DNA of 60,690 bases from Nitrososphaera sp. (GTDB lineage Archaea; Thermoproteota; Nitrososphaeria; Nitrososphaerales; Nitrososphaeraceae): NCBI GenBank assembly GCA_052038215.1, contig JBQGBZ010000063.1, positions 1 through 60,690 on the forward strand, written 5' to 3'. Below the pieces are notes generated by a model. It ran no database searches, was not told the origin of the DNA, and saw only the letters and a list, made by a program, of their open reading frames with translations. Shown one piece after another: positions 27,543-33,606 of the stretch. Position numbers and translations under genes: made by a program. Every line of letters begins with the position of its first letter. Within the stretch, counting starts at the first letter, position 1.

Positions 27543-27761
27543 TTATTTCTGTATACCTGCATGTGCATTTCTGATATGATCTTGTAATTCCTCTTTGTTG
27601 CGTGCTGTCAATCCACATATATCACACGTTTGCTGTCGGGGTGTCAGATCCTCAGGCTCTTTTCCACTTGTTAGGCTCAAATATTGCTCGTCAGACCTTG
27701 CAGCCTCTATTTTGGTATATTTGTTTTCATTTTCGTGACTTGTATTTTCTGTTTGCACCAT
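27543..27761 (-). CDS. Small C2H2 zinc-finger protein
   Basis: CDICG...ELQDHIRNAH. Confidence 0.8.
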   Translation of the reverse strand: MVQTENTSHENENKYTKIEAARSDEQYLSLTSGKEPEDLTPRQQTCDICGLTARNKEELQDHIRNAHAGIQK

Positions 27762-28223: not shown

Positions 28224-28644
28224 AAATCGAACAATAGTATCGCTTCTAACTTTTCTTTTTTGAAAGATGATGCATTGCAGCGTGTAGTAAATATGGTGAT
28301 ACATTATAATTTTGAGGAGTAGGTCTTTTTGCTGCCGTTGTTGTCCTAATTCCAATAATAATGATTAATATCATGCATTACCTTTTCGAGTAGCTTTACC
28401 GAATGACAATCTCTTTGGATTTGCAAACTGTAGTCTTAACCTCACCCTACAACTGTACGTGCATATTTAAACATCCTCAAAATAAGTAACACTGTAATGT
28501 GTGCAACTAGATAGCTAATCGTCCACCATTGATTATGCACCCTCCGTTAATGAGAAAAAACGTGCCAAACCCAATGAAATTGCCTTTTTGTTGTTGAGCT
28601 TTAATACCGTTCTCAATAGATTTTGAACCACTCATCCCATAAAC

Positions 28645-28654
28645 TTTATAAATA
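28645..28654 (+). promoter_or_regulatory. TATA box of the ilv leader/ilvB operon
   Basis: TTTATAAATA preceded by an A-rich BRE-like stretch, ending 22 nt before the uORF ATG at 28677. Confidence 0.6.
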
Positions 28655-28676
28655 ATTTCCATCCACATAAATAAAA

Positions 28677-28748
28677 ATGCCTCGGGCTGACAGCGGATAT
28701 TGTTATGGACACAACGTTCATGTTCTGGTTCTACTGAGGGTTGCTTAG
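28677..28748 (+). CDS. Putative Val/Leu-rich leader peptide (uORF) of the ilvB operon
   Basis: MPRADSGYCYGHNVHVLVLLRVA*; 7 of the last 10 codons are Val or Leu; hairpins follow. Confidence 0.6.
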   Translation: MPRADSGYCYGHNVHVLVLLRVA

Positions 28749-28809
28749 GGGCAAACTCTGTGCTTTCAACAAGCACGGCTTATGCAAATCAATTTGGTGA
28801 GAGATAAAA

Positions 28810-30498
28810 TTGGTTGAAATGACAGGAGCAAAAGCGTTGATTCAAGCCCTGGAGAAAGAGGGCGTAGACATAGTCTTCGGCCTTCCAGGAGGAGCGAACC
28901 TGCCAATATACGATGCCTTAGTAGATGCAAACTTTAGGCACATTCTAGTAAGGCACGAACAATCGGCCGCTCATATGGCAGATGGCTATGCCAGAATAAA
29001 GAGAAAGGCAGGGGTATGTTTTGCAACTTCAGGTCCAGGTGCCACAAATATCATTACAGGTATTGCTACTGCATATGCTGATTCTTCTCCAGTTGTAGCC
29101 GTAACTGGTCAGGTGCCGCTCGCCATGATAGGCAAGGATGCCTTCCAAGAAACAGACATCATAGCTGTGGCAAACCCTTGCACAAAATACTCATTCCAGC
29201 CAAGAGCCGCTTCCGAAATTCCAGAAGTTGTTAAGAAGGCAGTATACATTGCAGAGAGCGGCAGGCCTGGCCCAGTACTTGTTGATATTCCTAAGGATGT
29301 ACAACAAGCAACAGCTGATATGAAGTTTCCAGATCTTATCAAAGTTAGAGGCTATAATCCGAATGTAGAAGCGGACCTCTCAGAGATGGCCAGGGCAGTA
29401 GAGCTCTTGTTCAACGCTGAGCGGCCGATAATAATGGCAGGGGGCGGTGTAATTCTTTCAGGAGCTTTTTCAGAACTGCAGACGCTTGCAGAGCTTGTGA
29501 AGATACCGGTTGTGACTACCTTCAAAGGCAAGGGTGCATTCCCTGAGAACCACCCGCTTGCCATGGGACCGATTGGGATGCATGGCCACGCAGAAGCTAA
29601 CAAGATAATTCTTGAGGCAGACTGCATCGTGGCAATAGGTGCAAGATTTTCGGATAGATCTGTTGGCAAATTTGATGAGTTTGGTAAGGGTATGAGCATA
29701 ATCCATATGGATATCGACCCGGCGGAGATAGGAAAGAACAAGTCAGTAGATGTTGCGTTGGTAGGTGACGTAAAATCCTCACTTCGCACGCTTGTTAAGA
29801 TGTTCTCAAAGAAGATGATAAAAAGAGACTCAGATAGTCCATGGCTAAAGCGCAGGAAAGAGCTTATACAGTACTATGCTGAAACTCTCAAGGACTATCC
29901 AAGAGAGATAACAGCAAAAAAATCGCTCAAGAAATTGCGCGAATTGTTGCCAGCTAATGCGATAGTCACTACAGAAGTAGGCCAATGCCAGATGTGGGCA
30001 TCTCTGCACTTTGATGTGATAGCACCAGGTACATTCTTCAGCTCTACAGGTCTTGGCACGATGGGCTTTGGATTCCCGGCATCAATAGGAGCCAAAGCTG
30101 CCAGACCGGACGTTCCTGTGGTCGATATCGCTGGCGACGGATCGTTTAACATGACCGAAAACTCACTTGCAGTTTCGGTTCTTGATAAGCTGCCTGTAAT
30201 AGTATTCCTCATGAACAACTATATGCTTGGAATGGTAGCCCAATGGCAGCGCACATTTTACAATAGACGCTACAGTGGAGTACATCAATACCGCTGCCCC
30301 GATTATGTCAAGATAGCTGACGCATATGGCGCTCAAGGCATAAGAGCCGAATCGATGCATGAGCTTGAAAAAGCTATCAAAGGAGCACTCAAATCTGATG
30401 TAGCTACAGTAATAGACATCCCAATTGATCCTGAAGAAGACGTCTATCCATTTGTAGCACCTGGGACCGGTCTCAAGGATATGATTGTAGGAGCGTAA
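28810..30498 (+). CDS. ilvB: Acetolactate synthase large subunit
   Basis: FGLPGGA, RHEQ, TSGPGATN, AFQE, GDGSF..N TPP motif, GMVAQWQ. Confidence 0.97.
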   Translation: MVEMTGAKALIQALEKEGVDIVFGLPGGANLPIYDALVDANFRHILVRHEQSAAHMADGYARIKRKAGVCFATSGPGATNIITGIATAYADSSPVVAVTGQVPLAMIGKDAFQETDIIAVANPCTKYSFQPRAASEIPEVVKKAVYIAESGRPGPVLVDIPKDVQQATADMKFPDLIKVRGYNPNVEADLSEMARAVELLFNAERPIIMAGGGVILSGAFSELQTLAELVKIPVVTTFKGKGAFPENHPLAMGPIGMHGHAEANKIILEADCIVAIGARFSDRSVGKFDEFGKGMSIIHMDIDPAEIGKNKSVDVALVGDVKSSLRTLVKMFSKKMIKRDSDSPWLKRRKELIQYYAETLKDYPREITAKKSLKKLRELLPANAIVTTEVGQCQMWASLHFDVIAPGTFFSSTGLGTMGFGFPASIGAKAARPDVPVVDIAGDGSFNMTENSLAVSVLDKLPVIVFLMNNYMLGMVAQWQRTFYNRRYSGVHQYRCPDYVKIADAYGAQGIRAESMHELEKAIKGALKSDVATVIDIPIDPEEDVYPFVAPGTGLKDMIVGA

Positions 30499-30505
30499 TA
30501 GAAAA

Positions 30506-31021
30506 TTGTTTACAACTACGATTCAGAACGAATCATGGCATATTGTGTCTGCCCTCGTTGAGAACAAACCTGGTGTGCTATTCAGGGTCACTAACCTCTT
30601 CAGGGCACGTAGCTTTAACATAGAAAGCATTACAGTGGGATCAACTGAACAACAGGACCTATCTAGAATGACCATAACCACTAACAGTGATGAAAAGACA
30701 CTTGATCAGTTGGTAAAGCAGTTGCGCAAACTCATAGACGTTATAGAAGTAAAGGTACTTGACATGGACAAGACAGTATATCGCGAGCTTGCGCTTATCA
30801 AGATTAAGGCCGTTGATCCAACAACACGAAGTGAGATAGTTAACTATTCTACCATATTTCGAGGTAACATCTTAGATATCGACAAAGAGACAATAACAGT
30901 TGAGATAACCGGCACGCCAGATAAGATAGATGCATTTAAAAATCTAGTCGAGCATTATGGAATTGCGCAGTTGTCAAGAACTGGAGTTTCAGCTCTTCCA
31001 AGAGGTGGTGTAGAGAGTTGA
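30506..31021 (+). CDS. ilvN: Acetolactate synthase small (ACT) subunit
   Basis: VENKPGVL.RV..LFR.R.FNIESI, RELALIK, RTGVSAL. Confidence 0.95.
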   Translation: MFTTTIQNESWHIVSALVENKPGVLFRVTNLFRARSFNIESITVGSTEQQDLSRMTITTNSDEKTLDQLVKQLRKLIDVIEVKVLDMDKTVYRELALIKIKAVDPTTRSEIVNYSTIFRGNILDIDKETITVEITGTPDKIDAFKNLVEHYGIAQLSRTGVSALPRGGVES

Positions 31022-32550
31022 AGATGTCTAAAGAGTTGTCCAAAGATGCCGAAAGTGTTAAGATCTTCGATACTACTCTCAGAGATGGCGAGCAGACGCC
31101 TGGCGTGACAATAACTCCAGATCAGAAGATCCAGATTGCGACCCGGCTGGATGAACTTGGAGTCGATGCAATAGAGGCAGGGTTTCCAATAGTATCCCAT
31201 GGCGAGGTGCAGGCAATTAAGTCGATAGTAAAACAGGGATTGAAGGCCGAAATTTTTGGCCTTGCTCGTGCAAATCAGATCGACATTGATAGTGCTATCA
31301 AATGTGACTTAAAGTATATCCACACATTCATAGCAACTTCAGACATACATATGCAGTATAAGTTAAAGATGACGCGTCAGCAGGTCTTAGAGAAGGCAAT
31401 CATTGCAGTAGAATATGCTAAAAGGCATGGCTTACAGGTAGAATTTTCAGCAGAGGATGCTACGAGATCTGACAGGCAGTTCCTACTAAAGATATTCAAG
31501 GAGGTAGCACATGCTGGTGCAGATAGGCTAGACATACCTGATACTGTAGGCTATGCAACTCCACAATATATTGCAGACCTTGTGAAAGAGGTCAAGGAGG
31601 CTACAATGCTTCCAATAAGCGTCCACTGTCATGATGATTTCGGCTTTGCAGTTGCTAATTCGATAGCAGGTATAAACGCTGGCGCTGCATGTGCGCACGT
31701 CACCATAAACGGTCTCGGTGAGCGTGCTGGCAATGCGTCTCTTGAAGAATTTGTAATGGCGCTCCAATGCTTGTATGACAAAAAGCATAACATCAAGACA
31801 CAGTTGCTTTATGAAACTTCCAAGTTCGTTTCAAACACAATGGGCATAATCGTTCAGCCAAACAAGGCAATAATTGGTGAAAACGCCTTTGGACATGAGT
31901 CAGGGATACACACCCATGGTATCATCAGTAATCCACTTACCTACGAGCCCATAAGCCCTGAGCTTGTGGGTAGGAAAAGATGGCTCCAAGCTGGCAAGCA
32001 TGCTGGCGCACATGGCATCAAGGCGATGCTTGAAGAATTCGGTATCAAGCCTACTGACGAGCAGCTTCACATTATAGTGGAGAAGCAAAAGAACATTGCC
32101 GACAATGGCAAGCCTATTACTACATCGGAATTGTTATCAATAGCAGGTGGGGTGATGGATAACAACAAATTTGAAGAAAAATTCAAGCTCTATGACTTTC
32201 ATATCGTCACTGGGATGAATATTATACCGACCGCCGTGGTAAGGCTTAATGCCAACGGCAAGGATTTTATTGCATCAGACATCGGTGTTGGTCCAGTCGA
32301 TGCAGCGCTAAAAGCAATACAAAAGATATCTGGCGAGATGTCAAATGTCAAGATAAGAGAATATAGGCTTGACTCAATAACAGGAGGCTCGGATGCGCTT
32401 GCAGAAGTTACGGTGAAGGTTGAGGACAAGGAGGGGAACGTCGTATCTGCACGCAAGTCAGGCGAAGATATCGTGGTTGCATCTGTGCAAGCAATGATGG
32501 ATGCAATCAACAAAGTGCTGCTGAAGAAGGTTCTTTACTCTAAAAGTTAG
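31018..32550 (+). CDS. leuA: 2-isopropylmalate synthase / citramalate synthase family
   Basis: DTTLRDGEQ, HCHDD, GERAGN, HESGIH, C-terminal regulatory domain GPVDA; LeuA versus CimA not resolved. Confidence 0.88.
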   Translation: MKMSKELSKDAESVKIFDTTLRDGEQTPGVTITPDQKIQIATRLDELGVDAIEAGFPIVSHGEVQAIKSIVKQGLKAEIFGLARANQIDIDSAIKCDLKYIHTFIATSDIHMQYKLKMTRQQVLEKAIIAVEYAKRHGLQVEFSAEDATRSDRQFLLKIFKEVAHAGADRLDIPDTVGYATPQYIADLVKEVKEATMLPISVHCHDDFGFAVANSIAGINAGAACAHVTINGLGERAGNASLEEFVMALQCLYDKKHNIKTQLLYETSKFVSNTMGIIVQPNKAIIGENAFGHESGIHTHGIISNPLTYEPISPELVGRKRWLQAGKHAGAHGIKAMLEEFGIKPTDEQLHIIVEKQKNIADNGKPITTSELLSIAGGVMDNNKFEEKFKLYDFHIVTGMNIIPTAVVRLNANGKDFIASDIGVGPVDAALKAIQKISGEMSNVKIREYRLDSITGGSDALAEVTVKVEDKEGNVVSARKSGEDIVVASVQAMMDAINKVLLKKVLYSKS

Positions 32551-32577: not shown

Positions 32578-33606
32578 TTGGCAAGGTATAGAATTTCCCT
32601 CATCAAAGGAGATGGCATTGGACCAGAGCAAGCGGCAGCAGCAAAAAAGATCCTTGAAACAATAAATGACAACTCCCATACAAAATTTGACATTCAAGAA
32701 GTCGAAGCTGGCGATAGTGCACTTGCCAAGTTTGGAAAAGCATTGCCAGAATCAGCACTAGATATTATGACGAAGTCGCAGGTCTGCCTGAAGGGGCCAG
32801 TTGGTGAGACTGCAGCCGATGTTATAATTGTTCTTCGCAGGATGTTTGACCTTTATGCAAACATCAGGCCAGCCAAGTCATATCCGAACATTCCAAGCCT
32901 CTCAAGCAACGTCGACCTTGTAACAGTGAGAGAAAATACAGAAGATGTATACCTTGGATGGGAGTTCAACACAGACGAAAAGACAGTTGTAGCGCTGAGA
33001 GTTACATCAGAGCGCGCCAGTAGAAGGATTGCGGAACATGCCTTTAAGATAGCGATGAGACGCAACAACAAGCATAGAGTAGTCGCAGTACACAAGGCCA
33101 ATGTCCTACGCAAAGGGGATGGGTTATTTTCTGCTGTGTGTAGGTCAGTTGCCAATAACTATCCAAAGATACAGTATAGCGAATTGTATGTTGATGCAGC
33201 GTCAATGAACTTAATCCGCAATCCGGAGGAATTTGATGTTATTGTTACCACAAACTTGTTTGGGGACATATTGTCTGATGAAGCCGCTCAGGTGGTAGGG
33301 GGGCTTGGCATGGGACCGGCTGCAAACATTGGAGACAAGTTTGCGCTCTTTGAACCAGTGCATGGAGCTGCATTTGACATTGCAGGAAAGAATGTTGCCA
33401 ACCCATCATCTATCCTTCTTTCTGCCAAGATGATGCTCGAATGGCTCTCAGATAAATATGACGACAAGAATGTAATGGCAGAAGCTAGACGGATAGAAGA
33501 TTCCATTGTCAGTATGCTCAAGCAGGATCAAAAGACAAAGGATATAGGCGGCAACCTTTCTACTACTGAATTTGCAGCGCTTGTTGCAGAGGGGATGTAT
33601 AACTAA
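32578..33606 (+). CDS. leuB: 3-isopropylmalate dehydrogenase family
   Basis: GDGIGPE, RENTE, HKANV, NLFGDILSD, EPVHGAAFDIAG. Confidence 0.88.
   Translation: MARYRISLIKGDGIGPEQAAAAKKILETINDNSHTKFDIQEVEAGDSALAKFGKALPESALDIMTKSQVCLKGPVGETAADVIIVLRRMFDLYANIRPAKSYPNIPSLSSNVDLVTVRENTEDVYLGWEFNTDEKTVVALRVTSERASRRIAEHAFKIAMRRNNKHRVVAVHKANVLRKGDGLFSAVCRSVANNYPKIQYSELYVDAASMNLIRNPEEFDVIVTTNLFGDILSDEAAQVVGGLGMGPAANIGDKFALFEPVHGAAFDIAGKNVANPSSILLSAKMMLEWLSDKYDDKNVMAEARRIEDSIVSMLKQDQKTKDIGGNLSTTEFAALVAEGMYN

Follow-up and report, generated by a model that had tools for sequence, protein, structure and literature searches.

The window, by which we mean the whole 60,690-nucleotide stretch of Nitrososphaera DNA analyzed here, carries on its plus strand ilvB, encoding the large subunit of acetolactate synthase (28810..30498; start codon TTG; TIGR00118, 713.5 bits against a cut-off of 538), then ilvN for the small subunit (30506..31021; TIGR00119, above cut-off), a leuA-type isopropylmalate/citramalate synthase gene (31018..32550; NF002085 and TIGR02090, above cut-off) and a leuB-type dehydrogenase gene (32578..33606; TIGR02088, 393.7 bits, slightly below the cut-off of 409.8). 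An earlier sequence-only reading of this DNA had named an ilvB-ilvN-leuA-leuB operon; the NCBIfam cut-offs uphold the first three assignments and leave the fourth slightly short of its own. Elsewhere in the assembly, which is 88% complete, ilvC is truncated by a contig end and ilvD was not found.

The TATA box of the operon promoter, TTTATAAATA (28645..28654, plus strand), has a TTTATAA core that is unchanged in 18 of 18 aligned leaders. It lies 32 nt from an ATG at 28677, which is the distance expected of a leaderless transcript, and transcription is predicted to start at about 28675-77. This ATG opens a 23-codon, likely leaderless frame (28677..28748, plus strand) that encodes MPRADSGYCYGHNVHVLVLLRVA* and ends at a TAG stop codon (28746-48). 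Going back to the letters, we verified both the box-to-ATG spacing and the feature that had drawn attention to the frame, namely four Val and three Leu codons among its last 10 and none before. The control-codon run reads V-H-V-L-V-L-L-R-V (28716..28742, plus strand) and is followed by A and the stop. As the 1.6 kb upstream holds no same-strand ORF of at least 80 codons, the leader stands at the head of the transcription unit. This ORF-poor interval does contain a 72-codon minus-strand ORF (27543-27761) with a C-terminal CDIC...HIRNAH, which we take to be a C2H2-like pattern.

Three stems had been proposed at and beyond the stop codon, all on the plus strand. The imperfect stem spanning the stop codon was located at 28736..28758 in the predicted fold, and the hairpin behind it (here, the post-stop hairpin) at 28758..28778, with an 8-bp core that includes one U-G pair and a predicted extension covering 28751-28785. 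The third, a small CAAA/TTTG stem touching the Shine-Dalgarno-like GGTGA of ilvB, was rejected: its letters are present (28785-96), but the stem appears in none of four MFE folds and is not conserved in the genus alignment. The GGTGA itself (28796..28800, plus strand) is present in 14 of 14 genus leaders tested.

Conservation and codon content of the leader

We detected ilvB in 156 of the 201 genomes of the order and sampled upstream DNA at 110 loci, 30 of them top-scoring and 80 picked for family spread before their DNA was seen. One locus, L063, did not anchor, leaving 109 to be counted; L223, from the same genome, carries MQKPVPILILVVLR. The scoring rule took frames that open with ATG, span 8-45 codons and stop 10-130 nt ahead of ilvB, and counted Val, Leu and Ile in their last 10 codons. 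A count of at least 6 was reached at 69 of 109 loci, compared with 3.1 expected from shuffles and 7 on the reverse strand, and a count of at least 5 at 81 of 109 (10.3 expected, 14 on the reverse strand); the independence of these counts is overstated because the genomes are kin. All 15 genomes of the window's genus have the leader, and at least one locus reaches 5 or more in 18 of the 19 sampled families, and 6 or more in 16. The leader is missing or scarce in genera g4 (0/6), g6 (1/7), g8 (0/1) and g3 (0/1) and in families f14 (0/2), f15 (2/5) and f9 (3/7). Under the same rule, counts of at least 6 were found in 0 of 29 ilvD and 1 of 19 leuC upstream regions from 30 genomes examined. Outside the order, a single ilvB locus of 30 scores, apparently inside an upstream gene, and many of these ilvB genes are operon-internal. 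The sequence-only reading had suggested searching relatives for a conserved upstream frame with Val/Leu/Ile runs, and these comparisons of sequence support the frame as a conserved leader of the ilvB operon, specific to ilvB.

Could such a frame arise by chance in A+T-rich spacer? In the window's genome, 24 of 1,033 first-gene upstream regions (~2%) reach a count of at least 6, and only 7 of 1,033 reach at least 7; the window's leader ranks first among the 42 TATA-linked short frames of that genome. Against chance stand the enrichment over shuffles at ilvB, the counts at ilvD and leuC, and the position of the best Val/Leu/Ile window, which is in frame with the TATA-proximal ATG at 56 of 64 loci (32 of 37 genera). 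This in-frame conservation refutes a chance origin, which we regard as wildly improbable.

Database comparisons gave no match above noise for six leaders in Pfam and NCBIfam, and only two sub-threshold, unrelated matches for the leader region in Rfam. Four of four leader peptides tested by exact look-up were absent from a 15-billion-protein collection.

Several loci depart from the common form. Loci of genera g6 (L023-L027, L029 and L031) and g4 (L018, L020-L022, L028 and L030) are without the leader, and in g6 a TATATA element is conserved some 30 nt ahead of ilvB, which suggests that the leader was lost there and ilvB turned leaderless. In family f9, L044 and L045 have leaders with runs of Met codons (MMMMV, MMRMMMV) replacing a clean Val/Leu tail. 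A different short leader type precedes ilvB at six loci from other orders of the phylum (L238, L241, L243, L242, L244 and L251), which show ATG/GTG-AGG-GAT...CTC with Leu at codon 6, or a GGAGG...CCTC pair, and L247 and L252, also upstream of ilvB in other orders, have M-x-G-x-T-L-Q-V frames. At L239 (genome G269, another order), an in-frame L-V-I-V-V-I-L-K-stop is directly followed by a perfect 10-bp hairpin; this frame is without ATG and has ATT near the expected start site.

We also assembled a leader set that was blind to composition, taking the first ATG 20-45 nt downstream of a TATA-like box (n = 72, with 19 loci dropped for having no box and 18 for having no frame of at least 8 codons). 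Box-to-ATG spacing was 30-38 nt in most of the 72. Leu, Val and Ile made up 37%, 21% and 7% of the last 10 codons (65% in total), compared with 8%, 8% and 6% of the heads, and one leader per genus (n = 41) gave an equal picture. Counting back from the stop, their combined share was highest at codons -2 and -3 (0.85 and 0.81). Every one of the six Leu and four Val codons occurs in the tails; Phe and Met together account for 27 of 490 middle-U tail codons, against about 21% in the proteome, and Trp for 0 of 715 ilvB tail codons. Leader lengths vary from 13 to 37 codons with the frame retained, length changes inside the genus are multiples of three, and 30 of 46 tail variants in three groups are synonymous or Val/Leu/Ile exchanges. 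This codon pattern and the retention of frame are as predicted for selection on translated cognate codons, which would imply that the frame is translated.

An alternative is that the peptide product itself matters, through membrane action, an effect on acetolactate synthase or nascent-chain arrest. Consistent with this, a hydrophobic C-terminal run is retained in all leaders, and one close relative (L010) has an Ala/Phe-rich tail. However, the run is just 7-10 residues long and often interrupted by Asp, Glu, Lys or Arg, and the heads are without similarity between families. A membrane peptide is further disfavored because the tails avoid Phe, Met and Ala: Ala plus Gly amount to 6% and Phe to 3%, against 23% and 7% in membrane-like segments of the window's genome. 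We therefore consider a role for the product quite improbable.

It is also conceivable that the frame is kept, or translated, for RNA structure or protein binding, with the Val/Leu codons playing no part in sensing. Consensus folds pair the head of the frame with its tail, and a predicted alternative helix of 5 bp, formed by the last codon and the 3' arm of the post-stop hairpin, is 97% paired within the genus, with one compensatory change (21 of 500 shuffles in its test). As a candidate for a conserved antiterminator this helix is the only one within the genus, and alternative folds differ between leaders; we regard it as a lead only. There is also a precedent in Streptomyces coelicolor, where codon swaps in the ilvB leader were without effect, as cited in the accessible part of PMC1262725. 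Yet the amino-acid class is kept though no nucleotide motif is common to the families, Phe and Met codons, which are equally U-rich, are avoided, and the tail variants are mostly synonymous or Val/Leu/Ile exchanges. A reading without codon sensing is, in our judgment, unlikely.

For the sensing of cognate codons there is a second case in the same genomes. Among 20 targets viewed upstream of other amino-acid genes in the window's genome, a leader of a gene with a GATase domain (PF00117) alone stood out; we presume from its motifs that this gene is trpG. Its leader is of MQRGDSFWQL type with one Trp codon (G000:C57:4273-4305, minus strand; locus L098), with its own TATA box and a GGAG site. An ATG frame with R-G-(G/D)-x-F-W precedes the gene in 15 of 15 genus genomes (L098, L099, L106, L109, L110 and L198-L207), with Trp at codon 8 in 14 of them. 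Beside the ilvB leader, it supports cognate sensing, moderately so because synonymous changes are few in the motif, which may double as a hairpin. A variant occurs in genus g3 (L100), and most other genera of the family showed no such leader.

The post-stop hairpin and the operon transcript

In the window alone, the predicted folds are ordinary (z -1.0 to -1.75; hairpin z -1.1). Across 78 leaders (3 of 81 were left out, being too short or lacking pairing), the stop is followed in 56 by a hairpin with an energy of -7 kcal/mol or lower, and z is -1.65 or lower in 40 of the 78. Its sequence varies among families and its position is retained, the offset from the stop being set in part by a folding window that begins 9 nt before the end of the stop codon. 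Covarying stems had been anticipated; some changes do occur on both sides of the post-stop hairpin, to a modest extent (3 of 11 pairs in f4, 2 of 9 in f12). Free leaders often fold as a self-paired ORF followed by this hairpin, and several families have the stop codon within the hairpin base, where it pairs with a U-rich arm. Among free leaders of the genus, the hairpin often fails to dominate (mean probability 0.40; 0.23 in the window). The stem across the stop codon is predicted to compete only with the outer extension of the hairpin, and a 5-bp stem resembling it is found in only part of the genus.

The sequence-only reading had remarked that no U-tract follows the hairpin, and this holds broadly: the window contains no terminator-like site (hairpin plus U-run), and only 16 of 78 leaders have a U-run of at least 4 at the base of the hairpin. 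We accordingly rejected an intrinsic terminator with a U-tract.

To relate the hairpin to ribosome position, we modelled 49 leaders with a 28-nt footprint, matched to Haloferax data in the accessible part of PMC7261190. The median hairpin probability was 0.70 in the free leader, 0.76 with the A site at -8, 0.64 at -5, 0.51 at -3, 0.15 at -2 and 0 at the stop, the low values at -2 and the stop following by construction from footprint coverage.

Translational control had been offered earlier as one way around the missing U-tract. In this scheme, which keeps the same sensor and is of the mycobacterial polycysteine type, the tail or hairpin would block ilvB initiation and a stalled ribosome would free it. 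In family f12 the tail does pair with the Shine-Dalgarno site in a consensus fold of six sequences, a possible exception, and similar pairing occurs in single folds from f19, f5, f6 and f10; the f12 pairs, however, scarcely covary. Nor do 63 native tails close the site better than their synonymous shuffles (their rank averages 0.50, and 28 of the 63 exceed the shuffle mean), so masking by the tail was rejected as a general mechanism. In the genus, opening the Shine-Dalgarno site costs about 1.9 kcal/mol in every ribosome state, leaving it nearly open, and a steric block of the -20..+13 initiation window was rejected as well, since its opening is flat across ribosome positions (medians 6.7-7.4). 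The transcript described below, most of which reads through in one run, would suit a translational output, which we nevertheless judge to have a rather low probability.

A relative, G152, has three raw RNA-seq runs, of which X22 and X24 have zero reads on the leader and only X23 covers it; assembled RNA contigs cannot reveal transcript ends. In X23, which is stranded, no reads lie upstream of position 1371, the leader ATG is at 1373, and 25 molecules have 5' ends at 1379, six bases inside the leader frame, consistent with a leaderless start. Coverage is unbroken from the leader into ilvB, placing the leader on the operon transcript in G152. Thus, in this relative and this one run, the RNA begins at about the leader ATG and not downstream of the frame, which agrees with the start site foreseen for the window.

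Just beyond the hairpin, depth in X23 drops from 296 to 220, and adapter-bearing reads end at the hairpin base (21 at 1479 and 8 at 1485, 29 in total, probably two duplicated fragments). A comparable pile of 17 3'-end reads lies inside ilvB, and depth in the ilvB body rises to 1270, about four times that of the leader, in a type of library in which short RNAs are depleted. The 3'-end signal at the hairpin base is thus weak.

Bacterial precedent and the codon evidence together make ribosome sensing in some form probable. For its output we lean toward a model in which the transcript is terminated or cleaved at the post-stop hairpin unless a ribosome occupies the final control codons, a proposal to which we give somewhat less than an even chance. 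It is favored because the control codons are packed against the hairpin, the translational tests failed, actinobacterial ilvB leaders share this geometry, RNA 3' ends give a weak signal at the hairpin base, and each of the 5 genomes tested has aCPSF1. The leader frame would be translated from the mRNA 5' end and would sense charged tRNA-Val/Leu, both of which are likely. When Val or Leu is short, stalling on the last Val/Leu codons would place the ribosome over the hairpin's 5' arm, and transcription would enter ilvB. When they are plentiful, the ribosome would complete the frame and depart, the leader would pair with itself, the post-stop hairpin would form behind, and transcription would stop at the hairpin base. 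Help from aCPSF1/FttA is probable at this last step and is proposed because there is no conserved U-tract. Translation, stalling, the role of the hairpin, termination and the termination factor are all steps that we infer.

The direction of control in this model hinges on kinetics, because the hairpin is also prevented by a ribosome that has reached the stop, and for the most part survives when the stall is at -8 or -5. The logic of Rho-dependent leaders in bacteria, mgtL among them, suggests a reversed arrangement with the same sensor, in which a stall on early codons would let the hairpin hide its U-containing 3' arm from aCPSF1 cleavage, and a ribosome at the stop would open the hairpin and expose the RNA to aCPSF1. 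In the model the hairpin is indeed most probable when the A site is at -8, its probability falling to zero at the stop, several families pair the stop codon with a U-rich arm in the hairpin base, and aCPSF1 is present. But the arms are not U-rich in f7, f19, f6 and f10, and the control codons are best conserved at -2 and -3, positions from which the ribosome already disrupts the hairpin, which leaves a protective hairpin an unlikely arrangement in our view.

aCPSF1 acts in U-tract-linked termination, according to the available portions of PMC13675443 and PMC8116511. The window's genome has two aCPSF1-family genes above cut-off (G000:C19:3433-5268 and G000:C96:296-2293), as do two other genus members, and one of the two has an in-frame insertion of about 40 codons near model residue 170.

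Comparison with known systems

We found no archaeal leader-peptide attenuator in the full-text literature covered, from which subscription papers were largely absent. Term searches gave none in the main texts of PMC12612679, PMC10117724, PMC11456600 and PMC6991167, and no mention of attenuation in the available text of an archaeal coupling review (PMC8116511). If correct, our proposal would describe the first natural case of transcription-translation coupling regulating an archaeal operon. Whether archaea regulate transcription by ribosome position is an open question in the field, for which the leader offers a defined substrate of about 130 nt, conserved in 16-18 of the 19 families sampled and found in a relative whose RNA-seq data are public. 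In vitro assays of it could use archaeal RNA polymerase and FttA, and in vivo ones a genetically tractable archaeon. Unannotated leader frames of this kind point to a hidden layer of amino-acid control in the lineage.

The enterobacterial ivbL, ilvL and leuL leaders are classical attenuators, with a cognate codon run ahead of branched-chain genes. The archaeal leader resembles them in its short frame with a cognate codon run, in the two successive stems of its free form, in its in-frame conservation and tie to the cognate operon, and in its place on the operon transcript (G152, one run). It differs from them in that its control codons adjoin the stop and hairpin and do not lie upstream of an antiterminator segment, and in its leaderless start, its want of a U-tract terminator and of any Rfam, Pfam or NCBIfam match. 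Within the archaea, a Met-Trp upstream dipeptide frame has reportedly been proposed to sense the amino acid and control translation of the repressor gene trpY in Methanothermobacter. Both would be archaeal upstream mini-frames with a cognate codon, but the leader described here has 13-37 codons and a hairpin and lies ahead of a biosynthetic operon.

Closer in form are the ilvB leaders of actinobacteria (Corynebacterium, Mycobacterium and Streptomyces ilvBNC), which likewise have a short ORF with a terminal Ile/Val/Leu run and an adjoining or overlapping hairpin. In these, the runs overlap the terminator hairpin, according to the accessible part of PMC1262725, and in C. glutamicum the leader terminator was verified by mutation, according to that of PMC11857589. 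Unlike the archaeal hairpins, which mostly lack them, the actinobacterial ones carry poly-U runs; the archaeal leader stands behind an archaeal TATA promoter and is served by archaeal transcription machinery, and we saw no sequence homology between the two. With mycobacterial polycysteine sORF attenuators, as described in the available part of bioRxiv 10.1101/834739, it shares a short leaderless ORF whose 3' end holds the cognate codons and, on the archaeal side as a proposal, persistent ribosome occupancy as the ON state. The mycobacterial type pairs its codon run with the downstream Shine-Dalgarno site, a pairing that is not general in the archaeal leaders and is absent in the genus.

The ilvB leader can thus be described as resembling a ribosome-mediated attenuator, by a mechanism we put a little below even odds, that fails both the classical terminator test and the mycobacterial Shine-Dalgarno test. 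In the widest form of the proposal, to which we give nearly the same odds, this order of archaea would run its own ribosome-mediated attenuation, in which leaderless mini-frames with cognate codons (Val/Leu ahead of ilvB throughout the order, Trp ahead of trpG in the genus) act by way of a post-stop hairpin and aCPSF1/FttA to decide what becomes of the transcript.
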